A stretch of DNA of 63,273 nucleotides, filler included. It is 10 parts of 10 records of this genome, joined end to end, with 100 filler letters (N's around TTAATTAATTAA, not from the genome) between each part and the next. Parts side by side here need not be neighbours in the genome. Positions count along the whole stretch, not along the records: positions 57,315 to 63,273 come from SRR7504441_3481; 9 more parts are not named here. The stretch is one strand, 5' to 3'. Under the pieces are notes generated by a model. It saw only the letters and a list, made by a program, of their open reading frames with translations. It did no database searches and was not told the origin of the DNA. Shown here in pieces: positions 22,318 through 63,273 of the stretch (position 1 is its first letter; the number at the start of each line of letters is the position of its first letter). Position numbers and translations under genes: made by a program.

Positions 22318-22417
22318 NNNNNNNNNNNNNNNNNNNNNNNNNNNNNNNNNNNNNNNNNNNNTTAATTAATTAANNNNNNNNNNNNNNNNNNNNNNNNNNN
22401 NNNNNNNNNNNNNNNNN

Positions 22418-22749: not shown

Positions 22750-25700
22750 TCACTCAAGTATGCGCCTGATGATAGCCTCGACGAGCGGAGCGCCCTCGTG
22801 CTCATCAGTTAGCATGGTATAGTGATTTCCCGGCATCATCTCTACTTCTATCCCCGGTGCAAGTAGACTCCACCCCAAGCACCCGAGCCCCGCGTGGCTG
22901 TAGACCGACTCAAACCCCTCAACCGCCGGCTCGGTCGCCCGCAGCAGCACTGGCTTGAAGCACGCGTCCTCCGGGAGCGGCTCAGGCGCATAGCCCATCA
23001 ACGTCTGGGCGTTCACTGAATAGCTGCTGTAGATCTGACTCAGTTCACTCGCCCGCATTCCGCTCGGACAGCTCCCGTTCACCTGCACGTGCCGCAGGCT
23101 GCACTCTATTACCGCCTCCGGCTCATCGCTGGGCCAGCTCGCTCGAGACAGCACCGGCGCCGCGAACCGTGCACAAAGGTCTCGGACGAACCCTTGGAGC
23201 AGCTCTTCCGGCCCGGCCGACCGAGCGAAGAGCGCGGCGAACGTGTCGAGCATGATCACAGCTCCGAGCTCGCTGGGACTCGACAGCCGTCCGATCTCGT
23301 AGCACAGGTGCCCCCCAAACGACCAGCCAACCAAGTGGAGCGGACCTGCCGGCTGCACCAGCCGGGCCTGCGCCTTGTACGTCTGAGCAAGCTCTTGCAT
23401 GCTCGGAGGGCCGGCGCCCGGGCTGTGATTGGACTGCAACCCGAGCAGTCTAAAGTTGAGGTGTGTGGAGCCCCGCAGCCGGGCCGCCAGCCGGTTAAAG
23501 CTGGTCACTTCGCCACCAATCCCGTGGATCATAAACAAGTTGGTGGCCGGCCCTCCCGTCGAGCCGGTCGGGAATCGCACGATGTTCGGAGTCAAGTCAG
23601 CCGCGCTCGCCTGCCCGATCAAGCCGGCCATCTGCCGGGGTGTGCTCCGCTCGAGCAGCGCTGACACGCGCAGCTCGAGCCCGAACCGCTTGTTGATCAG
23701 ATTAGTGAGCCGAATCGCCGCCACCGAGTTGAGTCCGTACGCCCACACATCGCCGTCGATCGGGACTGGCCTGTTGAGCTGTTGGCTGACCAAGCTCCGC
23801 ATCTGCTCCTCGTGCGCGCTCAGCCGCGCCGCAGACTCCTCCGGCTCGGGCACAGCTGGCGGTGCTAGTTGGCTCCTGTCCAGCTTGCCGTTGGCGCTCC
23901 TCGGGAGCTCTGCGATCAGGAGCACCGCCGAAGGGATCATATATGCCGGCAGTGCCGCTTCGCACGCCGCCTGCACCGAGCTGCACACGAGGTCCGGTAT
24001 GCTGGCCGGCTCTGGCACACAGTAGCACACGAGCACGCCATCCAGCACTGCGGCTACCGCCCTGCGGACCAGCTGGCAGCGGGCCGCGCATAGCTCGACC
24101 TCGGCGAGCTCCACCCGAAACCCGTGCAGCTTCACCTGGGTGTCCAGCCGGCCAAGGAACTCGATCTGGCCGTTTGATCGCCACCGGCCCAGGTCGCCTG
24201 TCAGGTAAGATCGCTCGCTCGAGTCTGGGAGTGTCACAAAGCGCGAGGCGGTCTCCGCTGGGCTGCCCCAGTAGCCACGTGCAACGCCGACTCCGCCGAT
24301 GGCGATCTGGCCGGGCACGCACAGTGGGCTGGGCCTGGTGCTGTCATCAAAGACATACATTGCTTGATTGGCCATGGCGCGGCCGTACGGGACAGTTGGC
24401 CAGCTCGGGAGCTCGGCAGGGTCGCCGATCTCGTATATAACGGACCAGATCGAGCCCTCAGTGGCGCCTCCCATCGAGACCAGCCTGAGCCCGGGCAGCT
24501 GGATGGCTAGCTGCCCCGGGAGCTCTAGTGGTATATAGTCCCCCGACATCATCATCACCCGCAGGCTGCCCAGCTCCCACCGCCCGCCCGCACCCAGCTG
24601 ATCGCTCAACATCACCCCAAACTGCGGCACAGAGTTCCAGTGGGTCACCCTATACTCGGCCACCAGCTCCGCCAGCACAGCCGGGTCGCGTGTGCAGCCA
24701 TGCGCTGGGAGCACCAGCGTGCCCCCTGCAGCGAGCGTCCCAAACACGTCCCACACAGACAGGTCGAAGGTGAGCTCCGATATCCCGAGCACCACCGACT
24801 CACCCGAGAGCCCGAACCTGTGGTTGCAGTCGAGGATCGTGTTGAGCGGCCCAGTGTGCCCGAGCATCACGCCCTTGGGCTGGCCGGTCGACCCCGAAGT
24901 GAAGATCACATACGCCAGGTCCGCGCTGCCTGGAGCGCGCCCAGGGTTGAACTCGACCGGTGGCCAGCTTTCGCCCTTGAGCGTAACCGGGAGCACACTG
25001 AGCGCTTCGGGCCATCTCAGCTGGCGCAGGAGGTCGGGTTGGGTGAGCGCCACGCTGCACCGGCCAAGGTCGATCACCCGCGCTATCCGAGCCATCGGGT
25101 ACGCGCCGCTGACCGGCAGGTAGGCGCACCCGGCAAGCAGCACACCCACGGCCGCTGCGGCCTGCTCCCAGCCTTTCAGCATCACAATGGCTACGAGTGT
25201 GTTGTCCTCGCACCGGGCTGACTCGGCCCAGCGCCCACTGGCCTGCAGCGCCCGCCCGAGCTCGCTTGCCACCCTTGCAGAGACCTGCCCTAGCTGGGCA
25301 TACGTGAGCGACACCTCTGAGCAGACGACGCCCCGCTCAGGCGAAGTGCATCCGCTCACCAGCGCGAGCCGGTCTGGATGGCAGTGCATGGACCGGACTG
25401 CGGGCTCGACGAGCCATTCGGAGGGCACGGGCATGTGCGGGACTGGGTCGGCCGGACAGAACCCAGAGCGGGTGTCCACTGTCGATGACCACTTGCCAGG
25501 GAGGCCGATTAGGTCGCTCAGGCAGGCAACATGCGATTCCAAGATCTGCTCGGCCACTGCGCTCTCGACCAGGCTAGCCACTGCGTACGATACTTCCAGG
25601 TCGGAGCAGAACGCGTCCAAGAGCACGTGAGTCAGTTGGCCATCGTGGTGTCGTTCGTTCACCCCAGACGAGTCGAGGCCCTGGTCCGCACTGGTCGTGT

Positions 25701-27174
25701 GCTGCTCGAGCACACCCGGGCTCTGGATCCCGAGGACAAAGCTGCTGCTCCGGTGCTGCCTCATCCGGCGGACTAGCAGCAGGGGGTCGAAGTGCAGGTG
25801 CTGCAGGTCTTGAAAGAGCTGGCGCTGGACTCGTTCCAGGAAGCTCTGCCAGCTGTCTGAGGGAAGCAACTCGATCTCTAGGATGATCTCAGTCCGGGCG
25901 TCCAGCTCAGCTGCATGGCCGGGGGCGCACATCGAGAGCATCCCGATGCAGAAATGGTTTGATCCGCAGAAGGCGGCGATCACGGCGGCCAAGGTTCCCA
26001 CAAACAGGACACTCGGGCTGAGGCTGTGTGCCTGGGCAGTCTGTCGAATGTCTGCAATCGGTGGGCCGGCCTGGTGAATCGTCCGAACTCGATACTGCTC
26101 GTCGGTGCTTGTCAGCGGGATCACTGCAGGTTCGGGCAGGGAATGCAGCCGAGACATCCAGTATGCTTCGGATTTGATGTACTGGGCAGTGCCCTTGAGC
26201 ATCGACTTGTAGAGCGCATATTCAGCGGGGCTGACTGTGGCATGCGACTGAATGGCCTTTGGCCTACTTGTTGCAGTAGCTACCATGATATCGGCGAACA
26301 GTGGACGCGTCAGCGTTGGGGAAGCGAAAGCGTGTGGCAAGTTTACAGACACCACTGCTCTCCCTTTCGATTCATCCAAAAGGTGGACAGTGAGCAGGAA
26401 GGCGGGGAACGGCCTGCCCACGATTCGGGCCTCCATGCTTGCTTGCCTGAATTCAGTCCAGTGGGCTGCTTGCTCGCATTCGCTCTTCGACCTAAGGTCG
26501 ATCACGTTAGGCTGGAAGCTCTGTACGGTGCTCGAGGATGCTGGCAGTGTGCACCACATCCAGGTGTCCTCTGGCGCTTGTGTGAGGAACGTGCGCAGTG
26601 CAGGATATTCGGAAAGGGCCTGATGGAGCACGCTGTTGAACATGGACAGCTCGAAACCGTGGCTGAACTCGTACTCCATGTAATTGTGTGCACACAAGCC
26701 ATCCCAGCCAGTGATTGAGAACTCTCCAAGCACATACGAAAGCTGTGTTGGGCTGAGGGGCCAGCAGAGCTCGTTGGCGCACCCAACCATGTGTAGCAAC
26801 TCAGGCTCAGGCTTTCCGACTGACTTCTCTACAGGCATCTTGGCTTGACTGCTAGCCTGCCCTTCTCTTGCATCTGCTACGAGCTTGCCTAGCCCAGCAA
26901 CAGTGGCGTGCTGAAGCACAGCTGCCGCGGAGGGAACCCCGGACACACCGCTCCGAATCAACTCTCGGTGCAGGACCGCAGCCTGGAGGGAACTGAGCCC
27001 GAGCTGGATCAAACTGCGGTCGGGGTGCAGCTCGGAGGCTGGTAGCATGAGAACGCGTGCACAGACCTCTGCCACCATCGCCTCTGAGGAGGTGTGTGCC
27101 AGAGTGGCGTCGCCGTTTGCGCTACTTGACAATGATTTGAGGGGCTCGGGCAGTGCCTTCCGGTCCACCTTGCC
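22750..27174 (-). CDS. Nonribosomal peptide synthetase, 5'-truncated: [A]-PCP-Cy-A(Cys)-PCP-TE
   Basis: KVDRKALP (A10 of upstream A domain); LGLSSL (PCP); WPLSPTQLSY..CAHNYMEY and AYWMSRLHSLP (Cy); YVIFTSGSTGQPKG, FDLSVWD, YLTGDLG, NGKLDR (A); YGLNSV (PCP); GWSFGG..NHYTML (TE). Confidence 0.93.
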   Translation of the reverse strand, partial: GKVDRKALPEPLKSLSSSANGDATLAHTSSEAMVAEVCARVLMLPASELHPDRSLIQLGLSSLQAAVLHRELIRSGVSGVPSAAAVLQHATVAGLGKLVADAREGQASSQAKMPVEKSVGKPEPELLHMVGCANELCWPLSPTQLSYVLGEFSITGWDGLCAHNYMEYEFSHGFELSMFNSVLHQALSEYPALRTFLTQAPEDTWMWCTLPASSSTVQSFQPNVIDLRSKSECEQAAHWTEFRQASMEARIVGRPFPAFLLTVHLLDESKGRAVVSVNLPHAFASPTLTRPLFADIMVATATSRPKAIQSHATVSPAEYALYKSMLKGTAQYIKSEAYWMSRLHSLPEPAVIPLTSTDEQYRVRTIHQAGPPIADIRQTAQAHSLSPSVLFVGTLAAVIAAFCGSNHFCIGMLSMCAPGHAAELDARTEIILEIELLPSDSWQSFLERVQRQLFQDLQHLHFDPLLLVRRMRQHRSSSFVLGIQSPGVLEQHTTSADQGLDSSGVNERHHDGQLTHVLLDAFCSDLEVSYAVASLVESAVAEQILESHVACLSDLIGLPGKWSSTVDTRSGFCPADPVPHMPVPSEWLVEPAVRSMHCHPDRLALVSGCTSPERGVVCSEVSLTYAQLGQVSARVASELGRALQASGRWAESARCEDNTLVAIVMLKGWEQAAAAVGVLLAGCAYLPVSGAYPMARIARVIDLGRCSVALTQPDLLRQLRWPEALSVLPVTLKGESWPPVEFNPGRAPGSADLAYVIFTSGSTGQPKGVMLGHTGPLNTILDCNHRFGLSGESVVLGISELTFDLSVWDVFGTLAAGGTLVLPAHGCTRDPAVLAELVAEYRVTHWNSVPQFGVMLSDQLGAGGRWELGSLRVMMMSGDYIPLELPGQLAIQLPGLRLVSMGGATEGSIWSVIYEIGDPAELPSWPTVPYGRAMANQAMYVFDDSTRPSPLCVPGQIAIGGVGVARGYWGSPAETASRFVTLPDSSERSYLTGDLGRWRSNGQIEFLGRLDTQVKLHGFRVELAEVELCAARCQLVRRAVAAVLDGVLVCYCVPEPASIPDLVCSSVQAACEAALPAYMIPSAVLLIAELPRSANGKLDRSQLAPPAVPEPEESAARLSAHEEQMRSLVSQQLNRPVPIDGDVWAYGLNSVAAIRLTNLINKRFGLELRVSALLERSTPRQMAGLIGQASAADLTPNIVRFPTGSTGGPATNLFMIHGIGGEVTSFNRLAARLRGSTHLNFRLLGLQSNHSPGAGPPSMQELAQTYKAQARLVQPAGPLHLVGWSFGGHLCYEIGRLSSPSELGAVIMLDTFAALFARSAGPEELLQGFVRDLCARFAAPVLSRASWPSDEPEAVIECSLRHVQVNGSCPSGMRASELSQIYSSYSVNAQTLMGYAPEPLPEDACFKPVLLRATEPAVEGFESVYSHAGLGCLGWSLLAPGIEVEMMPGNHYTMLTDEHEGAPLVEAIIRRILE

Positions 27175-27952
27175 NNNNNNNNNNNNNNNNNNNNNNNNNN
27201 NNNNNNNNNNNNNNNNNNTTAATTAATTAANNNNNNNNNNNNNNNNNNNNNNNNNNNNNNNNNNNNNNNNNNNNCATTGGGCTGCGAGCACAGGGTGAGC
27301 CGAGGGGAAGGGGCCGGTCAGAGGGGGGGTCGGCTCGACTGGCAGGCAGGAGGGGGTGTTCTTACCGTGGCCTCACGGTCTCAGCATCTCCTCCTCTTTA
27401 TGAAATGGCGCCCGCTATCCTGGCGATGAGTCTGTCTGTCAGTCTGTCCCTACAGACTTCGTAACCGACGCAGTAACAGACGCATGTCTACGTGTACACG
27501 TAGCAACGGCACATTGATTCGTCCGGTGTGACGGCTAATTGTAGCTAAGTGAAATTGATTGCGTCTACGCCGCTACGCTCAAGGAATGTGAAAGTGAAAT
27601 TGCGTCTGTAGCCGTACTTCTCCTTCGGTGGGACCAAGTGATTGGTACCCATATCTTCCGCATATTGGCGCTTGGCCACCCCGGCACCCTCCGATCCGTA
27701 ACTCTCCGCCCGCCGATCGCGATACCGGTTTGCCGCATGTAGCTGCGCAGCTGCGCATGCATCTCTACAACGAGGTCTCCCGCCTAATCGGACATTAGTG
27801 TGGCGTGCCGACATGACGCCAACGCTCGTCCATTACGAATTCGAGGCGGCAACGCGTGACTTGTCCCTCTTGCAGCAGTTGCGGGCTGTTGTACATGTTG
27901 GCCTTTATGAATGATCGATTTTTTTTTTCAGTCGGTTGCGGATTCGCCACAC

Positions 27953-33448: not shown

Positions 33449-33643
33449 NNNNNNNNNNNNNNNNNNNNNNNNNNNNNNNNNNNNNNNNNNNNTTAATTAA
33501 TTAANNNNNNNNNNNNNNNNNNNNNNNNNNNNNNNNNNNNNNNNNNNNGCCCGCCATAGCTCTCGGTCCTCCGCAGCCTCCACAAAGCTCTTCCACTGAC
33601 GAAAGTACTCATAAATACTTGTAATTATGACTACCTGTAATCG

Positions 33644-37272: not shown

Positions 37273-37372
37273 NNNNNNNNNNNNNNNNNNNNNNNNNNNN
37301 NNNNNNNNNNNNNNNNTTAATTAATTAANNNNNNNNNNNNNNNNNNNNNNNNNNNNNNNNNNNNNNNNNNNN

Positions 37373-40300
37373 CAGCTTGTCGTCAAGCTCATGCGAATAC
37401 TTGTAATGTGGAAACCGAACTTTCAGATTCATGATGCACTGATCAGAAGCGCTAAGAAAGCCATCGAAAGACTCTCGGATGAAACGCACATTGTTTGCTA
37501 GCATTGATAGAGCTGCGTGTGTCCTAGGACGGGTTTTGTACCGCAATACCTCCCATTCAGATCTATTGCGTTGGTTAAGTCGCCCACTCATCCATCCTGA
37601 GCTAGACGAGCGAGAAAGGATAGCTGCCTTTACGTCGTCTAGTGTACCCGCCGCGAGCTTATTAATGTCGCTGACCCCAAGTGTTTGCATTACCTGAAAC
37701 CTACCTCTGAATTGTGGCGTATTGGCCAACTCCAGAAGCGTGGAGATGTATCCCACATGCCTGAAGCACTGCAAAAAGAAACAGTTTAGGCAATCAATGT
37801 AGCAAGTATTAAATTATGCATGTGGTGGTACCTGGGCTGGCTTTTCGTCACTATACCATCGTTCTCCTTGCTGCCAAGCTTTCACCTGTAGGCAATCCTA
37901 CCAATCAGGAAACAGCCAGCGAGCGGCTTAGGAGGCGCTACCGAAGCGCAGCTGCCAAGGAGTGGCGTCCGTACGCAGTTTATGTACATGTTCATAAACT
38001 CAGTCTCTTTCAGACACTGTGGAACTCCAAAGTTCTGGAATGAGCAAATTCTTTTGACCATGGCATCCATGAATTGTGTCGCAGAACTCGAGTGGTGACC
38101 CTCGCTATCAGAGCGGTTTGCTCGTTTCTGTGTTGCCTGTGGGGTCATAGTCATGTCTACATCAGTGCTGAAAGCAAGAGCACTCAGCTCGTCGTCCATA
38201 GCTATCATGATTGCAGCAGCACGATGGGCCTCTCTCTGTTCCCTCTGCATCCACTGCATGCGTACACTATCGGTCCACAGCGATGCTTTCTCCTGGTACC
38301 CAACGCCGTGCACATAGCATTCAAGACATCGTGTGTAGTGTTCAAAGGCTTCACTCATTATCGAATTCCTGTAGCTCTGACTCCCACAGCACCGTTTAAG
38401 CCACTGCTTAGTTTCATCGATCAGTGGTAGCCCTTCAAGAATTCTCTGAACACTTTCACAGGCATCAAATTTTCGAAATTCACTGGATGCAAATGGGTCT
38501 ACACCTCTGAGCTTGTCACCCAGTCGAGGGTTCAACCTGCAGAACAGTGCCAGCAAATCAGAACGAGGACCATCTATCAGCCCAGGCACTTGTATACATG
38601 CGTGTTCATCTAAGTATTGATCTTATTAGGCAGCAAGACTTACGATCGCTGGTTGCTGTCAAATGCTTGGACAGCACAAGCAAAGGCGATAGTAAAACCC
38701 ATCCATCTCTGAGATAGCACGTCCGCCTGCGTCTTCAGCTGTTGCCTAGTGGTGGACAGGCTTGCATAGGAGCCGCTAAGCGACAAGCCCCTGCGGGAGT
38801 CAAGAAACATTTCCATTAGGTATTCCGTCAATCCACCGGTCTCCACCAAGTTGAAACGGTCAAGGTTCTGAGCCATGGCCAAGCGGTTACCTAACTTGGT
38901 ACAAGCCTGGCCAAGATTCGCAAGCTTGATAGCATACTCTAAACACTCGTAGTTCAAGCCTCCGTAAGTCCCAACACAGCTGATTCTGAACCACTCTTTG
39001 AACACATTGGACGGATGGTGACGGCACTTCTTGTTCGCATCGATATTTCTGTTTGCCATGATCGTCTCTGCGATCACACAGAGACGATCTGCAGCTTGCT
39101 GCATAAAGTCATTCGAGGGTACCTCCACACCTCCCACTTTCGTTGGCACGCTAAATGCTGTGACATAATCAATTGGCTGAAGGAACTCGCGAATTGGCTG
39201 GACTATACCACTAGGTTGAAAGTACTCTTCTGGGTCATCTTGTTGAACGCGATCATCGCCTTGAACATCGCCTTCGACAAAAACAATGTGCTCCAGCGCC
39301 TTTCCAATCTCATCGAGAACACTGTCGATCTTTTTCAGGACATCGCCAAGGTGCTGGTGGCTGCAATAGTGCCCGACAAGTTCTTGGTTTTTTGCCATCC
39401 ACGCGTGTAGGCGATCGATTAAAAGACTTGTATTGATCTTTGCTCGTGAAATCGGCTCGCTGATATCTATCTGTAAGTTTTTCCTCAAGATTGTTTCTAG
39501 CTGACTTCTCGTCATGGAGTTCCTTTTGAATCTATGGTCTCGATCAAGATACTCCCCGTGCTGTTCCCATAGTACATAGTCGAGAATACTATTTAGTTTG
39601 ACAGACCATCGGCACATTCTGCCTATTGGAAACTCGTGGCTTTCGACGCCCTCTCTCTTGTCGTTCTCGTAGCAGAACAAGAATAGGTCAATGAGTCCCA
39701 GGCCATGTTTTGCCTCACTGTTTGGTACTCCTTGCCAAAGAAGAAGCACAACCTCCTTAAAGAGATCGTCGTCATACCAACCATCAACTATTTCTTTGAT
39801 GTCTCTTAGGCTGTATTCGCTTTTTGGAAAGTCTGCCTTGACCACTGGGTCAATCGCCTCAGGAATGTAGATTGTGTGCAAAAATCTGTTAAGCAAAGAG
39901 GCCTCCTCTTGTACATCTGCTTCCATTTTTTCGTGCAAGGCTTCCATGTTTTGGCACTGGGTGTACATTTCCATCCTGACGTGCATAAGCGCCGAAGGCA
40001 ATCCAACAATTTTGCTGAGAACTTCCACTACTTCTTCAGTCAAATCCACAATCTTGTCCTTGAACTTGTCCAGAGTAGACTGCAACTCTGCTCTAGCATC
40101 CAGCATGGAGGACCCAAGGATGTGAGATCCATACTCTTGTATCTCTTCGGTATTTTTGCGTCCCTCGCTTGTCTCTTTGTGAAACGTCACTACATCTGTC
40201 AAATAAGCTCGTACGTCGGCTCTTGACGCCTTTTCATTGAGGATAGCGCTGTTGAGATTATCCAGTGTGTCTCCAAAATCCTGAATATGCTCCCAGGACG

Positions 40301-43300
40301 AACTGGTCGTACTTTCAGCAGCAAGCCTACTGATGGCATCTGGCGTGATTGGCATTGGCAGTCCGACGCGACAAAACCTGGTTCCTTTGTCGTTCTCTAC
40401 GATCGTTTCCATGTCCTTCAGGATTTCTTCCATAGCAAAGCTGCCTTTCTTTGGATTTCGGCAGACGTGCCAAAGAGACATGTCGACTTGGCAGACTGCA
40501 GCCAACATGAAATGAGCGGGTGCGACCTCTTGACCAGACAGCTGCTCCCGCAGGACATCGACATGATCGAAGTTTCTATTTGTGAACCTTGTAATGAGCT
40601 CTTTGGCTGCCTTTGAGACCTGGTTTGGCGATGGCTTCTCGGTGTTGGAGTCACTTATCCGTCTTGAGGAACGCATAGTGCTAGCACGCTGTAGAACAGT
40701 ACCCTTAGACACGCTTTCGACCGCCTGTAAGACAGTCTGACAGCACGCTACTGCGCAGGTCCCAGGACTGCTGTTAGTTGCTTTGTCCCTGACTTGCATT
40801 TCGAGTAGCTGGCGCTCCAGTTCGGCCATGCCGACCCTTGCATTTTCAGGTTGCTGCCAGGCTATCTGGATGCTCTCGCTCATCTCAGTAATGGTACGAA
40901 TCTTGAACTGTTGAAGAGAGAGCACATAATACAAGAGCCTCGGGCACCACCCATCAGAATGCAACAGATTTGGATTGGTTACGCGGTCCCAACTGTCAGT
41001 GGACGACCACCAAGATTCGGGCTGCTGGGAGTGCTCGTATTTGCGTTCAGTGAGCAGCTGGGCGAGCTGCTCCATATCGATTGCACTATCCGAAAAGAGT
41101 TCCTCAACTCCAGTGTGATTCCTTGGGTACTTGTGGCCACCAACCCGATCGTCTCCTTTGTCGTTTGCCATTGGTGATTCTAGTGCGACAACGCTGTCGA
41201 GAAGGAGTCTTTCGATGCGCTCCTTTGGCCAATCGATGCTGCACATGTCCTCATCCGCCTTTGCCTGGTCTTTGGATATCACTTCGTCATCAATGTGAAG
41301 CGGCTCCTCCGTAGCTCCAAGATGTGCCTCCCTCTCAGGTCTGAACTTCCACAGAGAAACAAGGAACACCAGCCTGATCATCAAGAGCTGAACTAACACT
41401 CGGTAAGCAAGCTGAGTAGGCTCAGCCCGCAGCGAACAGTGGCCATCCCGATGATTGGTGAATGAGTGTACCAAATGATAGCATTCTCGGAAAATGGCAA
41501 TGTCATCCTGGTCCACTTGGTCACCAGGCTTGATGAACCGTGGTGGATCATCCTCGGACAGCAGCTGCAGCCGGTTCACATCTCCCAGAAGCTGTTTGAC
41601 CATTTCATTCGTCCACTCAGACACTACCGAGCGATGAAGGTGTTCCTCCAGACGAATGAACGGCAAGTGTTTATAAAGGAACCCATCGTCCTTATCTAAG
41701 TGCCCATGCATGCCGTTGATCACGAGCAGCATTTGCTGAATATTTGTATTCGAGCTTCGAAATGCAGAATCCTTCAGAGAGTGGTACATCTTTTTCGCGG
41801 ACTGCCGCAGCAAGAAGCGTAGAGCGTCGGTGCTCGAAGTGATGTCTTCATTTACATACTGGGTCGAAATGGCACCATGGAGCAGAAGATCGGGATCAAC
41901 AAACATCTGTGCCACCTGTGAGGCCACACAGCAGCAGTTAGGCGTGACTCTGAGCAAGTGAACATACTTTTGACATGACTTTGGCAATGAGAACGCGATG
42001 TTGAGGCCCACCGCGCTGATGCTGGGGAACACAAAGCGCAGGGTCAAACTTGATGATCAAGTCGACAAGTCGAGCCCTGAGATCCAAAATTTGCGCCTTC
42101 AAGTGCACATCTGCGAAGTCTTGGGTTCCAAGATTGTAGTTTTGGAGCGAGTCCACCTTTGTGCCATCTTGCTGTATCATTATTATCTGGCACACAGGTG
42201 AGACACGGCTCACAAGCAGTCACCTGGTCGCTGTCTGGCTCGACCTGTAGTTCGATGCCGTTGCGCTCCCTGATCCTGGACCAAACGCTCCGATTCATCA
42301 ATTCAAGCACTGAGGTTAAGGTTTTGAGCAAGAATTCTTGGTGCATCCAATCCTCCCAGTCCATATCCTCCTTTGCATAGGACTGCATAAAATGAAAATA
42401 CCGGTACGCCAATCCAAATGCAGAATAGATTTCATGCAAGTATGGATATGCTTTGCACATATGCATTGACTCTCGAAAGCAGTTGAGCATGGATCCCGGA
42501 TCCAATATTGTGTTTCGGTGTCCACAACTACACATGTACAGATTCCTGACCCCTTGGATGCTCTCTGAGAACTCGTTTTCCTTGTCGAAAATTTGTACAA
42601 ATAGCTCATTGCTCAGACCTGGTGTCCAGCGCACTGTAGCTGGGAAAGTGGATAGCACGAGGTACTGGTACAATTTCTGCCTGAAAAACGCGCCCACGTA
42701 CCATTCCACCTTTGTTGCTCTGGCAATTGCCACCTCGACATCATTGATAAGCCCTTCCACCTTGCCCTTGCCATCCGGGTGCAGGAAGAGTGCGGTCAGA
42801 CCCCGCGTATAAGAGGTATTCTGGCTGCTGAATTGGTTGCTGAGCAGCTTGCGCAACTTTTGGATATCTCGCTGTTCGGCTGCGTCGCGCCCAGCATTTA
42901 CCCACTCACGCACATGATGAAGCGAGCAGCCAGTACCAGCCGATTTGATCTGGGCGAACCTATCGGGGTCTACATCATTGTATGGATCTATGTAGTCAGA
43001 AGCTGGCATGAGTTGATCATCTGGACCCTCTGCGACAGTTTGCCAGCGATGAGACTGGAATATTGGTCGGAGATAATCGTCCTTGAGCTGATTGAGCGCC
43101 TGCTCGATGGTGCGCGAAACTTCAGCTGCTCGCCTGTGCCACTGAAACAAGAATCTGGAGCTCCATCTAACTTCAGACCCTCGCTTGTCCTTGAGCTTGT
43201 TGATCAAAACAAACAGGCCATCCATTGCAGTTACAATATGCTGGTGGTTGAATGTGGATACACTCACCTTGACCTCACCCTGTCGGTAATCTTGTTGCTC

Positions 43301-45823
43301 AAACTCTCCAGCTCTATAGCAGAGAACTGTATTGTATATATATATGCGCTGACGTTCAGCCCAGTCCACGTAGTAACGAAGGAGAGTGGACGCCTTTGGA
43401 TTGTTTTCGAGTCCTTCTGGATCGCCTGGGCTGAACCAGAGAGCATTCAGAGCATCTAATGGAGAGAAACTACAGAGCCGATTGATTCTATGCTGTGGCT
43501 TGGTCACATCAGCCGGATATGCTTTGCCTTCATGTTTCTTGATGCGGCCACCTTCGTCGACACACAGACCGAGCGCCTTTGCTGTGAAGATGTGCTCCTC
43601 AAAGCTGATCATTGGGAAGTAGTGCTCAAGCTTATCCCAGAACTCATCCTTCTGCAGCGCATCCATAGTCTGCCAGGCATTGGTCCGCGGATTAACGGCC
43701 TCCCAAGACTCGCAAGGTTTCGAGAAAGCTGCAATACCAAGAATCAAACACTCATACGCCATTCGCTGCTTGACTGGGGTGTCAAGCTCACGCCATTTAG
43801 TCTCTTTGGGGATCTGTGAAGCCCCAGTCAGATCCACATATTTGTTAAGCCAGCTGTCTTCATGCAATAGCTTGCTGGCAGAGGCACGCAATTCTGGCCT
43901 GCGGTGGTGACTGCCCGTATCCCCAAGTGTGCAGCTGTGGAATAGCATGCTAGCCTCGCCGAGGTCTCGCACAAACGTGTTGACGATGTCTGGGTCTGAG
44001 TGCAGCTGTCGGATCTTCTCTGCAAACTGAGGGATCCCTGGCTCTAGAACAGGTTTGCCTCTGAGTACGAAGTGCGTCAGGATCCCAAGCTGCCACATGT
44101 CTGCTTTTTGGCGACCAACAATATCGTCCCCCGGCAGAGGCACTGCCATTGTGGTGAGATTGGTGGCGTTCGGATCAATATTCTCTGGTGCCATCCATGC
44201 AAGCAAGTTTAAGTTGGCTTCTCTGTTTGCAAGCAGGGGCCACAGAGGAGGAAGTAGCTTGACGCCCTTTAATCCATACTGCGACGAGTGCTGTACAAAC
44301 ACCGAGTCTGGATTCACAGCGCAGTGTGCCATTCCTAGCTGATGCAGCACTGCCAGGGCATACGTCACTATAAAGATGACTTCCGCCTTCTCAGCCTCTG
44401 TCAGCACCCCTCTCTCGACCTGCCACTAAGTGACTCTAACGCCAGCAGCCAATGTCACCTGATACCGCAGCGTAGTCCTAGGGCAGCTCTCTGAGCTCAG
44501 TGAATCCAGTACAATCGACAGCCTTTGCTCCCTCCCAGGTCCAGCTGGTGAGAGATAGACTTTAGTTGCCACTACAAACGGCAGCTTGTCGGCGCCTTGC
44601 ATCAGTGTGGTGGTGTTCTCGAGCATGTGGTCAAGCCGGCTGCTCTCGGAGCCAGCATCCAGGTTTTGGTGCTGCAGATATCGCTGTATCTTGAGCTGCC
44701 AAGCCCAATACTCAACCGGATTCACATGAAACCCACACCTTTTGTTCTAATAGCGCCAAGCACTGCAGCCCAAGCTCGCTCTCCCCCTTCACGTCAAAAA
44801 GCGGCCCGGGTACAAACGCTGTCCGGGGCAGGGAGAGCACCAGCTGTGGCTTGTCATGCCGCTGTGAGTTGCACATGGCCTCGCTTAGCTCTAATTGGAC
44901 CCTGTCGATCCGGAGGAAGGCCGGCCGCACATCGTAGTGCTCGCTCACCCCAAACTGGTCAAACAGCGAGAAGATGTGAGGGTTGAGCCGCACCCGCACC
45001 TGCCCCCCGCTGGCACTCGGACAGCGAGCGGCAGCACCTCGGCCCTGAAGCTCTCCGGGTCCCGAGGCACGTCAAACAGCTCCTCCCACTCGAGGTGCGC
45101 CGAGTCCTGCCCGACGTCCTCGTCGTTCATCATCTGGAACGCCACCTCCGCAAATTCGATCGTGTCAAATCCGAACCTTAGCACGTTGTCCCGTCTGAGC
45201 ACTTCCATGTACCGGCTCATGATTGCCTGCTCCTTGAACAGGTCGCGCTGCCCGAGTTCGTCCGGCTGCTGCTGCTGCTGCTCAGCCTCAGCCTCCCGGA
45301 GCAAATAGTGCAGGTTGACGTACCACAGCTGCAGCTCCTCCTGCGCGTGCGAGAGCGGTGCCATCTCGAACCGGTCAGACGGGCCAGACACGGTCAGCCG
45401 GGACTCGGTGAGCTGGATGGTGGCGCCCCGGCGGAGGCTGAGCACCCGGGCCGGCTTGGGGTCCTTGGGGCCGAGCATCAGCTTGAGCTCCTTCTGGTTC
45501 CGGTCGAGCAGCACGTACCGCTTCGGCCAGCCCTGCAGGTGCAGCGTGTTGACCTTGAACCACGAGCCCAGCCGGTGGCGGGCGCCTGACATGGCCTGCC
45601 GGCTCAGACTGAGGATGTCGTTGAACAGGTTCCGGGCCTCAGCCTGGGTGATCGGCCGCGGTTTGGAGGTGTTGGCGCCCAGCGTGTGGTCGTACTTTTT
45701 CCAGAGGGCTTTGAGCTCGACCAGCGAGATGTTGGCGAAGTCGCGGCCCGGGATCTGGTCCAGGATGATGTCGATCTTGCACGCGCCACGCTGCTCCTCC
45801 TTGGACGAGAGAACACCGCCCAT
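37373..45823 (-). CDS. Giant (>2500 aa) myristoylated PH-domain/pseudokinase protein, 3'-truncated
   Basis: MGGVLSS; GWPKRYVLL..ELQLW (PH); LAVLHQLGMAHCAVNPDSV, WMAPE, KADMWQLG, RASASKLL (kinase C-lobe). Consecutive minus-strand ORFs can be joined by short introns. Confidence 0.7.
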
Positions 45824-46127
45824 CCTGCTGTCTCCTCCTCACCGGATCGGCAGCAGCGGCCTCCTCCTCCTCACCGGCCTCGCAGCTGCTGCCTCCTCCT
45901 CATCGCACCCGGCTCGGTGGCACCACTGACTGGACGCTGTCCGGGATTATTCCGTTGGCATCAGGTCCGTCGCTTCGACCGCTGGTACTGTTGCATGCTG
46001 TTGCGGCTGTTGTAACAGCAGTACGNNNNNNNNNNNNNNNNNNNNNNNNNNNNNNNNNNNNNNNNNNNNTTAATTAATTAANNNNNNNNNNNNNNNNNNN
46101 NNNNNNNNNNNNNNNNNNNNNNNNNCT

Positions 46128-51842: not shown

Positions 51843-52460
51843 ACTTGACCCTCTCTCTCCATCGTGCATGATTGTGTACATGCATGCAGCAGAAAATGGA
51901 ATAAATCTCTACGTGCATGATATGGTTGTATCACTGCCCTACAGCTCTAGTCGGATTCTGCATTCTCCTATTTGGACCTTTGCCAGCGATCACCAGCAAT
52001 ACCACTGCACAGTTAACCGCTTCTGCTTGTATGGGCAGCCATCTGGTTGCCCGGGGCGCAAGGCGCCAGNNNNNNNNNNNNNNNNNNNNNNNNNNNNNNN
52101 NNNNNNNNNNNNNTTAATTAATTAANNNNNNNNNNNNNNNNNNNNNNNNNNNNNNNNNNNNNNNNNNNNTGAGGCGGGAGTGAGGGGTCTAGGCTCAAAG
52201 CAAGTCGAGCCTAGGCTGGACCCATCAAACTTAAATTAAATTTGTCCCCCCCGGAGATGGTTTACTAACCTAGGTAGCTTTTGAGCATAATCGTTTCAGT
52301 GTATGTACGAGTAATCACACGATCAAAACGCCCCCGCCCGCTGGGACGACTGACCTGTCACTTTCCCGACAGCCTACGTCTGCGGACCTGATCGAGTCAC
52401 AAGTCCTCCGACTCAATAAGATTAACACACGCACCGCGGAGTGCAAAGGTCGTCGTCAAA

Positions 52461-57094: not shown

Positions 57095-57314
57095 CAAGCT
57101 ACTGCATTCGAGCAGCCGGAGCAATGATAGGGAGCAATGCATTGATGCAATGCATTGAAGTAGCTTGTTGAGCGCACCTTTGGACGCACGTGCTTCATAC
57201 AAAACTTCACAATTNNNNNNNNNNNNNNNNNNNNNNNNNNNNNNNNNNNNNNNNNNNNTTAATTAATTAANNNNNNNNNNNNNNNNNNNNNNNNNNNNNN
57301 NNNNNNNNNNNNNN

Positions 57315-60300
57315 CACTGTGTCGCCCAAATAATTCACTCTCTTGTTACCATCTGCATCTACTATTTCTTGCCCCTGTTCGTCCCTGTCATACTGGGTAG
57401 GCACAAATGCTGCGCGGATGCCACAAATGTCAGCGAGGTTGCCTGTGACAAACAGCTTGCGCATTACTGGGTTGAGTGGCTCCTTGACAAGACGTGGTGC
57501 AAGCACGTCACGGCGTATGATTGGGGCATTGACCACAGCCTTAATTTCCTTGAACTCCTCAAATCCAACATAACCGGACCCGTCTGTATCCATCATGTCA
57601 AACCTGCATGCAGAAGTCAACCTACATTACCTGGCCAGGCACACACCAAACACGGATGAGCTCATCATCACTGCCCTTGCCGTCTCCATAAGCTGATGCA
57701 ATCTCTGACCAGGTCTCAAAGTCCATCCCTTCATCTTCTTCATTATCAGGGTCCTTCTCCTTGGCCAGGTCGAATGCTGTGTACAGAATAATCTGCTCCA
57801 TTTTCTTCTCCCGCGAGATTGCTGAACCGTAAATCTCCCTGTATGCATTGAACACAACACCAAGAAGAAGACTGAGAAGAAAGAAGAAGGTGATAAGCAT
57901 GAATGAGATCAGGACAAACATTGTGACCTGATATTTGCTGTACAGCTGGAGCAGAATATCTGGGTGGTTGGCAGTGGTGAGCAGAATTAAGAAGTTCCAG
58001 ATCCCATCTGCTCGGTTGCCAACAATTGGGGGGTATGCCTCAAGGTTCTGGTCCATCTGATTTTGATTCATGATTGCCAGGTAAAAGAAATAGTACATAA
58101 AGAATGAGACCACAATCAGTGATATCACGCTCGGCAGCTTCATAAACACTTTGAATGCAGACAAGCAGGCGGATCGCATGGATGGGGAGAAGAAGAGGAA
58201 CATGTAGCAACGGGAGATCTTGAGGCCCATTGCCCACCGGTCAATGTAGATGTTTCCCAATACAGTGTTGATCTCAATCTGCTGCCACTTGCTGATGTCT
58301 TGCACAATGCTGATCGTGCACATCGGAAGAGCAAACAGCATCAGGCCAATCAGCCAGTACTCCTCGCGTGAGCCCCGGAACCAGAATTGTCGGCACGGCC
58401 ACATGCATTGAAGGTAGATAAAGCCCACAGCCCAGATGATAATGGTGCACGTGGCTGACATGGCCAGCCCAATGGCATCTGAGGTGCTCCAAGTCTGGGG
58501 GGACTCAAAGAGCGAAGCAAGCATGAGCACTGCGCAGATTGTACGGAACAAACGGCAGAAGAACTGAGAACGCAGTGTGCGCCCCCACCCAACAGCACTA
58601 GGTGAGTCAGACCAAACTGTGCCAGCACAGATCTTATCCTTTGCACCGTATCCACTTGAGTCACCAGCCTCACTCAGGTAGTAGATGTCCGTCAGGTTGT
58701 GAGTAGCATCACGCACCATTACAGCTGCTTGCTTCTTCTTGTACCAAATGAGATCATTGAATGGATTCTTGAGCGATCCTACCTTGTACCGAGGGATCTT
58801 CCAAAGCAGCGACATATTGAGGTTCTGATCTGGCTGCAGACCAAAGTACGGCCACAGGTTGGCTTCTGCCAGCATCCGAGCAAATTCTGAGAAAAAGAGG
58901 TAGCCAGGTCGGGTCACCCCAAATGTGTCAACAAGGTCCTCGCACATGTCCACGCTATCCTCAAGAGTATCCATATCAGTGTCTGAGAAGTGTGAAATGT
59001 GGTTCTCAAACACCTGGTGCAGCTCATGCACACTGATCATATTGTCATCATTGTCGTCCACCAGGTCGAACAGCCTTGTGACCTCCCACTTGAGCTCCTG
59101 CATGGACAGTGCACCGTGCTGGTACGCCAGCTCTGGTTTATTGTTGACCATGTCCACGAGCACAGCCCAGAAGTCGTGCTGCTCAATCATGTTGTGGAAC
59201 TGATCAAAGTCCAGCAGCCCGTCTTCACCAAACTCCTCGACCATGGCAGCAGTGAGCGCCTCAGGGGCGTGCTCAGAAGAGTCTCCCTCAATTGCAGATG
59301 GGTCAGTCACAAAGTGCATGAAGATCTCAAGCAGCTCGACGTGATCAATTGTGCCGCTCTTGTTTTCGTCCACACGATCAAAGAGAGTTTCAAGCCACAT
59401 TCTGCCAAAGTTGTCCATGTCCTGTAGCTCAACCACACCGACTTTATCCAAGATCCGGTCAAACTCAAGCTCATGGTACTGCCCAAACTTTGCCAACCAC
59501 TCATCACGCGACACCTCCCTGTGATCGCCATAGTACATGTCATTCCCAAGCATTGGCTGCTCCTCACCAGTGCCAGAGCCTTTACCAAATACTGAGCTGG
59601 TGCCAGAGCCACGTCCAGGCCCTGGCCGGCTCCGATTGCCTTGGCGGTCACTTTGAATCTGATCCCACTCTTGGCGGTCAACAAACCCGTCTCTATTGGT
59701 GTCATACTGATCAAAACCCCTGTCACCTTTGCCAAACACAGCCTCCCACTCTGCGCGATCGATCTTGGCATTCTTGTCGGAGTCCATCTTCAGAAACTGG
59801 AGTGCCTTGCTCTGGCCATTCCCAGACTCCATCAGGTACACTAGTACTCCATACCCGTTGGGTGGGGTGGTCTCATCCAGAAGCTTGACTGGGCGCATGA
59901 CAGCGTCATACAGCACCCCACCATGCTCTTCCTCATGCTCCAGCTCATGATCCTGAGTTAGCACCATATGGATGTGCTCTAGTCGCTTTAGGCAAGCCTC
60001 ATCCTCCCATCCCAAGTCAGAGTCAAACTTGCGCTCCACTTCAACATGCTCGACTGTTGCAGGCACTGATCCACCAGCCTTAGTTGCTGCCTTCTGGATC
60101 TCAGTAAAGCTGCCCTCAGTGATGACAGCCTCCTTGTACGTCTTATTAGCCCAGGTGTACTTGCCCTGAGCATCTTGTATGCACATAGCAATTGGCAGGT
60201 CGTCCAGCATCTCCCGATCTTGATTGAGACTCTCAAGCTTGCTTGTCTTGTTCTCCATTGCCTGCATTAGGTCGTTGTCTGTGTCTGCTGCCATAATGTC

Positions 60301-63090
60301 ATCATCATCCTCGAGCTTGGGCTTGATGTACCACTTCTCTGAATGAGTTGTGTTGTCAAGCATGCTGACTAGCTCAGCAAGTGCCTGCTTGCCAACCTCA
60401 CCACCAGTAGTCTCATTCTTGTAGATCTCCTCATAGTACTTGATGATTGTGGCAATAAAGATGTTAACCATGACAATCACAATGAATATATGCATGATGA
60501 AAAAGTACCAGCGCGCATTCCTGTCTGTTACAGTCACAAATCCATCCACTGTGACTTGCCAGTTGTTCACCACAGTCTGTGTGTAGATCAGAAAGAATGC
60601 CCGCCCAATGTTGTCAAAGTTGATTGCAGTGTAGTAAGCAGTTGATCCATAAGAGCTTGAACTGTATGGTTCTGTTGTCCAGTGACCAGGCCCACCCTCT
60701 TCAATCACTTTGGTGGTGGAGCCAGCAAACAAGCCCATGCCCATTGAAGCAAAGCCAAAGTAAACGATCACAAATACAGTCAGCTGTGGAATCAGCAGAG
60801 TCATGGTCTTGCGGCTGGCTTTGCACATCTGTGCAAGGGCTGGGATGGTGTTGGTCAGCCTCGCGCACCTCAGAATCCGGCTAACTGCGAGAACAACGCG
60901 AAGCCCACCTGCACCTTGGGCAGATCTGCTACCGCCACAGATGATGAGCCCGACCACAAAAAGGATAGTGGAGACAAGGTCGTTCCAGTTGTACAACTTC
61001 GTGAAGAATGAGAGTGGGTTCTTTGCAGTTGTCTCAGCAGGGATACGGAGGACAATGTCAAGCAAGAACATCCAGGTCCAGAAATACTCCAGCCCAGCTC
61101 CAGGGGCAACACATGTGTCTGTCACATCTGCACAAAGCAGGTAGATTACTGACATCACTGTGAGTAAATCAATGAAGTGCTTCCACGAGACATAATAGCA
61201 CCAGTGGTCATCAGGAATCAGGAGCGCTTCCTCAGGTCGGGACGAACCGAGAGTGCCAGTACAGAAAATATGATTTAACATTGGGAATCGCGGTGCCTCC
61301 CCAGCCGCCGCCTCTGCAGCCTCCTCCTCCGTCTCTTTTTCCTTGAGTGGAGCGTTGCGGACAGATTCAAAGTTCTGGAACTCTGAGACTTCGACATAGC
61401 CGGAGCCATCAATATCTAACATATCGAACCAGACTTGCACTTTCTCCTGCGAGGGAGTTGGTCTTGCCCGGGCAATCACTTCAGAGAATATGTCAAATGT
61501 GATCCCTTTCTCCTCTGGGTCCTCTGGGTTAGTCACTTCAAGCATTTTGTAGCATGAGTTGAGCACAGCCTCGCGCAGCTTCCGGCGCTCCTTGATGCTC
61601 GCAATGTAGTGCTTTTCATAGAAGTTGTACACAATTGCAAGCACTACGTTCATCAAGAAGTAGAATACCAACACCATGAACGACACCAGAATCAACGCAC
61701 TACCTGGATTGTAGGCATAAAACTGCATCACGATATCAGGGTGGTTGGCTGTGGTCAGCAGCACGAACTGGTTCCAAAGCGAATCCTGTCCGGGCTCACA
61801 CACAGCCGGCGGCTGGCCAGTGAACCTTCGCGAGTCCGGATGAGCTCCCCAGATTGAGCTTGTACTGTGTGGTCCAATATGATGTCTGGGTCATATAGTC
61901 TGTGAAGTAGAATGGCTCGTGGCTCAGTGCGGCAAACCAGATGAAGTAATAGCACAGGAACACCACGATGATGAGACCAAACACAGCTGCCAGGTCCTTG
62001 ATAAGATAGAAAGTTGTCACAATAGCATCACGCATCCTAGGCGAGAAGTAGGCCATGAAGTAGCAACGCGTGAGCCGGAGCCAACACGCAGCTCGGCTGA
62101 ACTCGATGTTGCCATCGATGGTGGTGACTTTCTTGTTGTCGACTTCTGCGATTTCAATGATTTCACCAACAAAGCTGCATGCTTGTCAGTATCAGCCAGG
62201 AGGGCGGAGCGATACCCGGCGAGAAGCATCACGCCGAGCATCATCGTCCAGACATCCTCCTCGGCACCACTATACCAGCGGCCTTTGGCAGGGAACATGC
62301 ACCAGAGCTTCAGAAAGAAGACAACGGTGAAGATGACAAGGATCACGAGCACAACGATCTCACCCACCTGACCGACCTGTGAATAGCCAGCTGGGCGGGT
62401 AGCGGGGTACGTAGTACGGGATCTGACCCCAGATTCTTGGTCGTTCAAACATGGCCATTGCCATGCACAAGAATGCGAGCCACTGGAACACACGCACTCA
62501 GCGGAGGTTTGGTCGTCACACAAGCACAGCACCCGATGGGATTCGTCGGGGAGGGGCGGGCGCGGGGGGAGGGCTGAGGTCGCATGCGTGGAAGGGCAGA
62601 GGGGTCGGTTGCCTTGAGTAGTAGCCGGCAGTACTGCCCTCGGAGCCACGATGCTACCCACAGCCTGGTGCTATCATCGCCCCAGACTGCCTCAACCTCA
62701 CCATAGCCTGCCACAATCGACGATAAAGTCAGGCCGTGTTGTCGGCAGCCACCGTCCTTGTCTTTATCCGGCGGCACGCTGATATAATACGAGCCCAGAA
62801 TGCCGTCCACCGCGTCCCGAGCCATGAGCAGGGCCCTCTCGTCGCACTGGAGACCGCTGGTGGGACGCTCCTGGCCCAGCGGTCTGCCCCGCAAACGCAG
62901 ATCTGCGCACCTTGGCCGGCGGCACCTCCTCGAGAGGCACTTCAGCGTGCCCCATCTCAGGGTCGACCGTCAGTACTTCATCAGTCTGTGCCGGCGGCTG
63001 GCCATCGGGGTCGTCGACCAGAGAAGGATCCCGGACCGGATTGTCCTCGACGCTGGTATCAGGGTGTGGCGCCACGTCCGCCTGGCTCAT
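57315..63090 (-). CDS. Tandem two-pore-channel-like protein with EF-hands and PAS-like linker, 3'-truncated
   Basis: LLTTANHPD twice, TVVNNWQV once, FERP/FESP S1 motifs, multiple DxDxSG EF loops. Confidence 0.85.
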
Positions 63091-63273
63091 CAGGGTTGGA
63101 GCGGGCCACGGCCGCGTTGCTGATGCACACAACAAGAAGCTTGAACCTGTAACAGCAATTCCGTTTTTTCGGCAAGAAATTTCGATCTCGAGGGTCGGCA
63201 ACCTATACAAGTCCACCAAGGAAATGTATTCTATCCAGGGGGTTGGAATTGGCTGAAACGACCCCCTGTCCAC

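Follow-up and report, generated by a model that had tools for sequence, protein, structure and literature searches.

A tandem two-pore channel gene of a marine microbial eukaryote appears to encode a four-domain channel built separately from animal sodium and calcium channels

Two-pore channels (TPCs), represented by TPC1-3 in animals and TPC1 in plants, contain two six-transmembrane (6TM) domains with an EF-hand between them, and the known members are two-domain chains that dimerise (10.1101/181578). In these channels, the second voltage sensor is active, EF-hand 2 mediates activation by Ca2+, and Na+ selectivity comes from two asparagines of filter II (10.1101/181578, PMC11085791). Cav and Nav channels are considered to have arisen by two duplications in succession, and TPCs are seen as survivors of the two-domain stage (PMC6259924, 10.1101/181578), and their domains 1 and 3 are alike, as are domains 2 and 4, which is expected from the duplication of a two-domain unit (PMC6259924). 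E/E/E/E filters are described in four-domain channels (PMC5824947), and a four-repeat pseudo-tetramer that arose apart from Cav/Nav is known in CNGK, where repeats 1/3 and 2/4 are most alike (PMC7576140). Here, we report on a window of 63,273 nucleotides (the whole stretch of DNA that was analysed), whose last contig, at 57315-63273 (SRR7504441_3481), carries a partial double TPC gene on the minus strand. The domains of its first unit are called DI and DII, and those of its second unit DI' and DII'. In our view this is, with high probability, a real and expressed nuclear gene of a marine microbial eukaryote, which encodes a polypeptide of about 2430 residues with two complete TPC units in tandem, each of which runs from an N-terminal region through two 6TM domains (I and II), separated by an EF-hand, to a PAS-like domain. 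The resulting four-domain channel appears to have been built separately from the animal sodium/calcium channels. Full-text literature searches, with subscription papers and supplements outside their scope, found no description of a natural four-domain TPC.

Members of the TPC family reside in endolysosomes or vacuoles and are gated by PI(3,5)P2, NAADP, voltage or Ca2+. The window's protein resembles known TPCs in several respects: an EF-hand separates the two 6TM domains of each half, both filter motifs (I and II) can be aligned with animal TPCs of known structure, S4 is rich in arginine in the second domain of either unit, and the two halves, whose best sequence matches are TPCs, fall within the TPC clade. 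Unlike known TPCs, it carries two diverged units per chain, a PAS-like domain after each DII and an EF-hand-rich linker between the units, and its first voltage-sensor region is too diverged for a sequence match in the PDB. With the Cav, Nav, NALCN and Cch1 channels it shares 24 transmembrane segments in one chain, and the likeness of domains 1/3 and 2/4 seen in Cav/Nav is also found in the window's family. However, this family differs from Cav/Nav in forming a separate clade, in having no acidic or lysine filter ring, and in having EF-hands in the linkers that join domain I to II and domain III to IV, as well as a PAS-like domain behind each of domains II and IV. Independent four-repeat channels have a precedent in CNGK, which differs in belonging to the CNBD branch, in its K+ selectivity, in having a cyclic-nucleotide-binding domain per repeat and in having no TPC origin. 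The KCNH channels (EAG/ERG) combine a PAS domain with a 6TM voltage-gated-type channel, as the window's family does, but they are single-domain tetrameric K+ channels whose sequence kinship lies only at the superfamily level. The PAS domain of KCNH is N-terminal.

The gene model was built by tblastn with DI' and with the full-length relative P0160, followed by a junction-by-junction search for splice sites. The remaining part of domain I was thereby located upstream, in four short frames, and the junction search placed four introns, three of them GT-AG (43, 41 and 40 bases) and the fourth GC-AG (130 bases); three more were added to the model afterwards, of 40 and 45 bases near the 5' end and 43 bases near the 3' end. 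The initial annotation had placed an uninterrupted open reading frame (ORF) at 57622-61803. The frame is indeed open, but its extent has to be corrected: from stop to stop it runs from 61890 to 57622 on the minus strand (1422 codons), and the coding exon within it is 57647-61785, flanked by two introns that are spliced out in RNA contigs. With about 1380 codons at 52% GC, this open frame is far longer than expected by chance. For comparison with reads, 20 listed runs contain all or part of the stretch (19 recorded as RNA, 10 studies together), and four were compared with the contig, namely X1, X2 and X9 (RNA; marine/seawater metatranscriptomes of three studies) and X3 (probably DNA; aquatic). 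The parts of the gene model are as follows.

57315..63090, minus strand: partial double two-pore channel gene; 8 exons, 1798 codons, stop-free, truncated by the contig end at 57315
62871..62910, minus strand: intron 1; 40 bases, GT-AG; predicted, and skipped by an RNA contig of run X1
62708..62752, minus strand: intron 2; 45 bases, GT-AG; predicted only; its removal improves the alignment with P0160
62483..62612, minus strand: intron 3; 130 bases, GC-AG; predicted only; best-scoring junction
62368..62410, minus strand: intron 4; 43 bases, GT-AG; predicted only; best-scoring junction
62175..62215, minus strand: intron 5; 41 bases, GT-AG; predicted, and skipped by RNA contigs of X1 and X2
61786..61825, minus strand: intron 6; 40 bases, GT-AG; predicted, and skipped by an RNA contig of run X2
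57647..61785, minus strand: exon 7; 4139 bases, no stop
57604..57646, minus strand: intron 7; 43 bases, GT-AG; skipped by RNA contigs of X1 and X9
57315..57603, minus strand: exon 8, partial; unit-2 EF-hand and beginning of the DI'-DII' cytosolic linker; truncated by the contig end

Exon 7 contains, in order, the DI pore, an EF-hand, DII, a PAS-like domain, the EF-hand-rich linker, DI' and most of the second EF-hand. Four of the seven predicted introns (1, 5, 6 and 7; 40-43 bases) are spliced out in RNA contigs from three runs of three studies, and introns 2, 3 and 4 had no RNA contig coverage in the compared runs. Removal of intron 3 equalises the length of the S1 region with P0160 and DI', and the stretch of intron 2, which is in frame and stop-free, could alternatively be coding. 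The codon position of intron 6 matches that of an intron in a relative (P0159/P0010 versus P0160). Intron 7 splits a Trp codon immediately before the unit-2 EF loop, and it is retained in the contig 57572-57759 of the DNA run X3. A start ATG is proposed at 63088-63090; it is unproven because the frame is open upstream to the end of the window without an in-frame stop. As a side observation, six of the seven introns belong to a narrow class of 40-45 bases and the remaining one is a predicted intron of 130 bases that begins with a GC donor; all introns but one lie within the first 1300 bases of the gene, and the homologous DI' region of unit 2 is intron-free.

The read evidence is consistent with a correctly assembled and expressed gene. 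The pieces of the four runs (one DNA, three RNA) were at least 99% alike to the contig, apart from one piece at 95-99%, so that a check for misassembly revealed none, and no joints or loose ends were found in exon 7 in the contigs of these runs. Run X1 had depth in all 25 bins (199 bases each) from 57315 to 62289, and its pieces tile the DII-linker-DI' region, the gaps being filled by pieces of X2 and X9. A transcript break within the linker, which the initial annotation had named as a possible refutation, was therefore looked for in these data and was not seen, with the limit that contigs cannot prove one molecule. The RNA contigs establish expression and splicing; one continuous molecule lies beyond the reach of short assembled contigs. 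It had also been noted that the contig ends before DII', which is true: the contig begins at 57315, directly after an artificial spacer. One X1 RNA contig extends 56 bases past 57315, and the gene thus continues beyond the contig end.

In the protein encoded by the window, the Pfam search of the long ORF gave Ion_trans in three stretches (E 2e-31) together with several EF-hand families, and a further EF-hand was found in the short frame beyond the long ORF, towards the contig end. The minus-strand translation of the long ORF contains TTANHPD twice, LRVVLAVSRILRCARL, VVNNW, FESP and LKISRCYMFLFFSPSMR; LRLTRCYFMAYFSPRMR, the S4 motif of DI, sits one exon upstream of the coding exon of the long ORF, so that every motif quoted by the initial annotation was located, the last of them just outside the frame to which it had been assigned. 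The domains and motifs are given below, with residue numbers of seed matches and loop patterns referring to the composite protein, in which the window model is joined with P0001. HMM stands for hidden Markov model.

61606..62645, minus strand: domain I of unit 1 (S1-S6), interrupted by introns 3-6; seed-HMM match at residues 121-382, and hydrophobic segments
61735..61755, minus strand: filter I, TTANHPD; aligns with the filter-I region of zebrafish TPC3 and mouse TPC1
61381..61416, minus strand: EF-hand loop in the unit-1 DI-DII linker; canonical, 12 residues; Pfam EF-hand families; loop pattern at residue 446
60421..61197, minus strand: domain II of unit 1 (S1-S6); best Pfam Ion_trans stretch at ORF residues 236-493; seed-HMM match at residues 519-777
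60856..60903, minus strand: S4 of DII; four arginines, R-x6-R-x2-R-x2-R
60559..60573, minus strand: filter II, VVNNW; identical five residues in the mouse TPC1 alignment
59812..60222, minus strand: PAS-like cytosolic domain after DII, from our own multiple alignment A1
58576..60420, minus strand: cytosolic inter-unit stretch of about 615 residues; Pfam EF-hand_5 and EF-hand_7; free of hydrophobic segments by hydropathy
59668-59703, 59335-59370 and 59023-59058, minus strand: inter-unit canonical EF loops, by loop pattern
57826..58575, minus strand: domain I' of unit 2 (S1-S6); intron-free; seed-HMM match at residues 1393-1642
57958..57978, minus strand: filter I', TTANHPD; motif match
57555..57590, minus strand: unit-2 EF-hand loop, canonical; Pfam EF-hand_1, E 2.2e-6; loop at residue 1707

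The inter-unit stretch contains the first PAS-like domain, three EF loops, and the pre-S1 N-terminal region of unit 2, which is homologous to the N-terminus of unit 1 (tblastn/alignment). The three loops (residues 1017, 1128 and 1232) lie in the roughly 300 residues between the PAS-like domain and unit 2, and the other two canonical loops (446 and 1707) lie in the DI-DII linkers. The two DI copies are about 35% identical, and units 1 and 2 show 34% identity over 359 residues (DI pore to EF-hand) and 205 residues (DII). The duplication is an old one and no artefact of repeat collapse.

The missing DII' was found in P0001, a protein of 979 residues from a transcript-derived JGI contig of 3172 bases. 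P0001 is identical to the window model at 348 of 349 overlapping residues and to DI' at all 253 aligned residues, and intron 7 is removed from it by splicing. Beyond the overlap come a cytosolic stretch, another DII (with S4 and the filter QNNW), another PAS-like region and a C-terminus that ends in QM, as it does in the relatives P0010/P0160, P0011 and P0012. Pfam detected two Ion_trans stretches and an EF-hand in P0001. The composite of window and P0001 has 2428 residues, with seed-HMM domains at 121-382, 519-777, 1393-1642 and 1939-2200; together with four clusters of hydrophobic segments, none of them between residues 771 and 1396, this agrees with the four 6TM domains and the following DII' that the initial annotation had expected. 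A pattern search of metagenome contigs with P0001 gave 18 matches, none of which was confirmed. An AlphaFold2 (AF2) model of P0001 from 12 aligned rows was poor (mean pLDDT 52.0, pTM 0.38); the first 12 entries listed by Foldseek for it were TPC chains, with TM-scores of only 0.2-0.3, so that they carry little weight.

The same plan was found in relatives. An exhaustive protein search with P0001 gave 1067 proteins at E <= 0.001 and 18 at E <= 1e-30. The best match after P0001 itself was P0010 (2379 residues), whose cluster member P0160 has 2671 residues and lies on a contig of 8242 bases; a sister contig yields P0159 and P0010, of which P0159 reads through an intron of about 47 bases at the codon of the window's intron 6. 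A word-index search with P0160 added P0176 (2653 residues; Logan members of 2659 and 2654), P0177 (2506 residues) and P0178/P0208 (2179/2509 residues), the last two being isoforms of one Trinity transcript in EukProt. The four relatives were at 33-54% identity to P0160. Four Ion_trans stretches each were detected by Pfam in P0160, P0176, P0177 and P0178, and the order I-II-I-II was obtained with our own DI-type and DII-type seed HMMs in P0160, P0176, P0177 and P0208. The whole four-domain ORF is present on the relatives' contigs of 7605-8242 bases and on one Trinity transcript. In addition, a relative's ENA contig of 6521 bases holds DI' and DII' together, where the gene callers split the products exactly at the window's intron 7: P0161 covers the linker and DI' and reads into the intron, and P0218 runs from just past the intron-7 position through DII'. 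The DI-DII-DI'-DII' architecture is thus conserved across five lineages despite divergence to 33-54% identity.

Within this architecture, some features are fixed and others vary. The filter I decapeptide is invariant in all ten DI and DI' copies, and filter II reads x-N-N-W in 10 of 10 copies. The x is V in DII of the window and Q in DII of the other four; in DII', the window and P0208 have Q at this place, and P0160, P0176 and P0177 have M. All filters are uncharged, with T-A-N in the DI domains and V/Q/M-N-N in the DII domains, without an acidic or lysine ring. The filters of Cav and Nav channels are known by motif names such as EEEE and DEKA. The likeness of VVNNW to animal TPCs, which had been pointed out before, holds at the level of sequence in the mouse TPC1 alignment. 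In the S4 of the window's DII', a tyrosine replaces one arginine of the R-x6-R-x2-R-x2-R pattern, and the S4 of DI and DI' has only two basic residues, three apart, with one or two more in the following S4-S5 stretch. Inter-unit canonical EF loops are present in all five family proteins; with the strict loop pattern, P0160 gave no loop in its unit 1 and P0176 none in its unit 2. The two halves appear to be diverging already in the filter II residue before N-N (V, Q or M), in the number of S4 charges and in EF-hand retention.

Several lines of evidence assign both halves to the TPCs. First, in phmmer searches of the PDB, unit 1 (700 ORF residues) matched zebrafish TPC3 best (6v1q, E 1.3e-29), its residues 35-487 and TPC3 residues 239-669 forming a single aligned stretch that extends from the DI pore to S6 of DII; mouse TPC1, human TPC2 and Arabidopsis TPC1 followed. 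Unit 2 (P0001) gave a best TPC match at E 2.3e-24. For either half, the 15 best distinct PDB sequences were all TPCs, and the best Cav match was at 6.4e-10 for unit 1 and 3.1e-6 for unit 2. Second, phylogenies gave the same placement. From 143 detected two-domain units, 52 were kept after cluster duplicates and units with weak domain coverage had been dropped, and in a FastTree analysis of these, the window's two units joined those of P0160 and P0011. A quick IQ-TREE analysis of 55 hand-chosen rows, including an outgroup of five named Cav/Nav proteins (10 halves), recovered the 11 family units as a clade (SH-aLRT 100). In a more careful tree of 34 rows and 626 columns, made after removing 21 rows and with three Cav/Nav proteins (6 halves), the eight family units formed a clade at 100/99, with a unit-1 clade at 93/87 and a unit-2 clade at 100/100. 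The family joined the two-domain environmental TPCs at 100/100, and the Cav/Nav halves formed a separate clade at 100/100. The approximately unbiased (AU) test rejected the family and Cav/Nav as a single clade (log-likelihood difference 73.8, p 5.1e-5), and the independent origin proposed by the initial annotation is supported by this test and the careful tree. Third, seven Cav/Nav-type proteins were scanned with the seed HMMs, and every detected domain (3-5 matches each) fitted the DII-type seed only.

The branching order (P0208, (window, (P0160, P0177))) was obtained in both the unit-1 and the unit-2 clade. Sister clades of equal branching order point to a single duplication of the whole TPC gene, within the TPC clade and preceding the split of the lineages. 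Because all four domains lie in one open frame, we class the protein as TPC-derived rather than as a canonical TPC. Taken together, we are fairly sure that the gene and its single-chain architecture are real and derived from TPCs.

The window's family is not the only such case. Two Ochromonas danica proteins, P0148 (1969 residues) and P0169 (2233 residues), and P0044 (1924 residues) also have the order I-II-I-II with our seed HMMs; P0044 has four Ion_trans domains in Pfam, and the best PDB match of P0148 and P0044 is Arabidopsis TPC1. These double TPCs of Ochromonas (Chlorochromonas) danica and P0044 are like the window's family in domain order and TPC affinity, and they differ by a separate origin: in the TPC tree their units group by themselves in another place (clade support 100/99), and a single origin of the Ochromonas-type lineage and the window's family was rejected (log-likelihood difference 83, p 2e-7). 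They are known as database gene models only. Another protein, P0025 of Achlya hypogyna (OQR85622.1, 1378 residues), is annotated as two pore calcium channel protein 1 and has four Ion_trans stretches. It may consist of two neighbouring genes merged by annotation, since in the tree its two halves side with different two-domain proteins from Thraustotheca and Aphanomyces.

The domain after each DII has conserved motifs at an N-terminal hairpin and a C-terminal strand, with variable inserts in between. Its AF2 model is of low confidence (mean pLDDT 58.5), with ten-residue blocks covering about 91-140 averaging 74-87, and contains five strands (two N-terminal and three C-terminal) with helices in between. 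All but two of the listed Foldseek matches in the PDB were PAS, LOV or PYP (E 2.8e-4 to 8.5e-3, TM 0.3-0.6). Pfam matches came near the curated thresholds but did not reach them, with 16.8 bits for PAS_8 in P0177 and 21.2 bits for PAS in P0017, a two-domain relative, and a profile of the domain against the PDB gave two insignificant matches at E of about 0.5, both of them PAS domains (BvgS and TraJ). The nearest clusters in the protein atlas were of the EAG-type Ion_trans plus PAS class, with scores of 0.77-0.79 below the 0.9 mark, which we take as a lead only. On the basis of these models, the domain is tentatively described as PAS-like; it is older than the duplication. As further observations on this domain, the nearest two-domain relatives (P0014, P0017 of 767 residues, P0023, P0026 and P0048), all environmental, share its conserved motif and may be a PAS-bearing TPC subfamily in its own right. 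In one lineage, the second PAS-like domain contains an inserted zinc knuckle of the CCHC type, at residues 2577-2593 of P0176 (Pfam zf-CCHC, E 3.7e-4) and at the corresponding place in P0218; it has no counterpart in the window's protein.

From this architecture a working model can be proposed. The four domains of one chain would fold as a pseudo-tetramer, DI-DII-DI'-DII', around a single pore and so replace the TPC homodimer, and with the homodimer replaced, the two halves would be free to diverge. DII and DII' would serve as the voltage sensors, with S4 arginines at every third place as in the second voltage-sensor domain of TPCs. Cytosolic Ca2+ would act by way of the EF-hands of three linkers, two between DI and DII and one between the units, with up to five canonical loops, and the PAS-like domains would supply additional regulatory input. 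The uncharged filter, formed by T-A-N from the DI domains and x-N-N from the DII domains, could conduct Na+, and perhaps Ca2+, as in animal TPCs. We consider it probable that one chain forms one pore in this way. It is an even question for us whether the full statement holds, namely that a 24-segment pseudo-tetrameric cation channel was rebuilt from TPCs at least twice, in the marine family and in the Ochromonas type, the marine one being asymmetric and regulated by voltage, Ca2+ and the PAS-like domains.

Other explanations have to be weighed against one chain around one pore. The product could be a precursor that is cleaved, or unit 2 could be made from an internal start, and the working channel would then be a TPC-type dimer (a unit 1/unit 2 heterodimer). 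Each unit is a complete TPC with its own N-terminal region and PAS-like C-terminal domain, and the linker is long and could hold a cleavage site. However, the EF loops of the linker are kept in frame in all five family proteins across the divergence described above, which is the pattern expected of a linker working within the protein, and the RNA contigs gave no sign of a transcript break; we therefore regard this explanation as unlikely. A little less likely again is a single chain whose units pair between chains, either as a two-pore dimer or as unit 1-unit 1 and unit 2-unit 2 pairs, with no asymmetric four-domain pore. It has in its favour that TPC units naturally dimerise (10.1101/181578), but the two units have stayed joined from a time before the five lineages split, and their branching orders match. 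Such retention of joined units fits an obligate partnership; intramolecular pairing is unproven by it.

That the gene is an artefact, in which neighbouring TPC genes or paralogous transcripts were wrongly joined by assembly or annotation, is very improbable. In its favour, the window is made of short metagenomic contigs, and the Achlya hypogyna model may itself be such a merge. Against it, there are 4139 bases without a stop, independent DNA and RNA runs match the contig, the same domain order recurs in four diverged relatives recorded in JGI, Logan and EukProt, and at about 34% identity the halves would not be collapsed or mis-joined as repeats. Finally, a divergent member of the classical four-domain channels (Cav/Nav/NALCN) with no new origin can practically be dismissed: it would account for four 6TM domains per chain and for the weak PDB matches to Cav3 and Nav, but the TPC matches surpass these by 18-20 orders of magnitude, the two groups are kept apart by both the tree and the AU test, the order is I-II-I-II against DII-type domains only in Cav/Nav, and the filters are uncharged.

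Several points weigh against a single TPC-derived chain around one pore and should be kept in mind. The voltage-sensor region of DI alone (S1-S5, P0159) gave no sequence match in the PDB at E <= 0.01. DII' is taken from the separate record P0001, outside this contig, and introns 2, 3 and 4 and the start codon are predictions from the sequence. Among the RNA pieces of the host, the longest of which has 1197 bases, no single molecule spans both units, and contigs of this kind cannot show transcript ends. The groups for the AU test were named after the tree had been seen, and the tree was built without named plant TPC1, animal TPC1 or TPC3, NALCN/Cch1 or CatSper. Both AF2 models are of low confidence, and the statements on the PAS domain and on the fold are accordingly soft.

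The window consists of ten unlinked contigs of 3.1-12 kb each (GC 0.52-0.69), separated by nine artificial spacers of 100 bases (N run, TTAATTAATTAA, N run), and the gene neighbourhood across any spacer is therefore meaningless. The spacers are at the following positions.

12036-12135: artificial spacer (N run, TTAATTAATTAA, N run)
15275-15374: artificial spacer, same composition
22318-22417: artificial spacer, same composition
27175-27274: artificial spacer, same composition
33449-33548: artificial spacer, same composition
37273-37372: artificial spacer, same composition
46026-46125: artificial spacer, same composition
52070-52169: artificial spacer, same composition
57215-57314: artificial spacer, same composition; directly precedes the contig of the double TPC gene and joins it to an unrelated contig

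For example, the xanthine dehydrogenase frame ending at 56837 lies on a different contig and is uninformative about the TPC gene. On a further contig, an open frame of 1490 codons on the minus strand at 22750-27222 has Condensation, AMP-binding, PP-binding and Thioesterase domains and looks like a single-module gene of the non-ribosomal peptide synthetase (NRPS) type in apparently eukaryotic DNA. Two open frames on the minus strand of another contig (GC 0.52), at 38640-42056 (1138 codons) and 42044-44425 (793 codons), had no Pfam match at E <= 1e-5.

The second duplication behind Cav/Nav is otherwise inferred from ancient events only. The window's family offers a natural and younger instance of the step from two to four domains, for which two-domain sister proteins survive and five diverged members are available, and these members show which asymmetries arise once the halves leave two-fold symmetry. 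It is a channel type of marine metatranscriptomes that is missing from a survey of eukaryotic four-domain channels (PMC5824947), as far as the available text of that survey goes: 'TPC' and 'two-pore' are absent from it, and its supplements, like those of PMC11085791, could list such proteins. Full-length transcript-derived sequences exist, which makes the question experimentally tractable. If our interpretation is true, the family would be a living replicate of the second duplication that is thought to have yielded Cav/Nav, and it might serve its hosts as a fast Na+/Ca2+ excitability channel.

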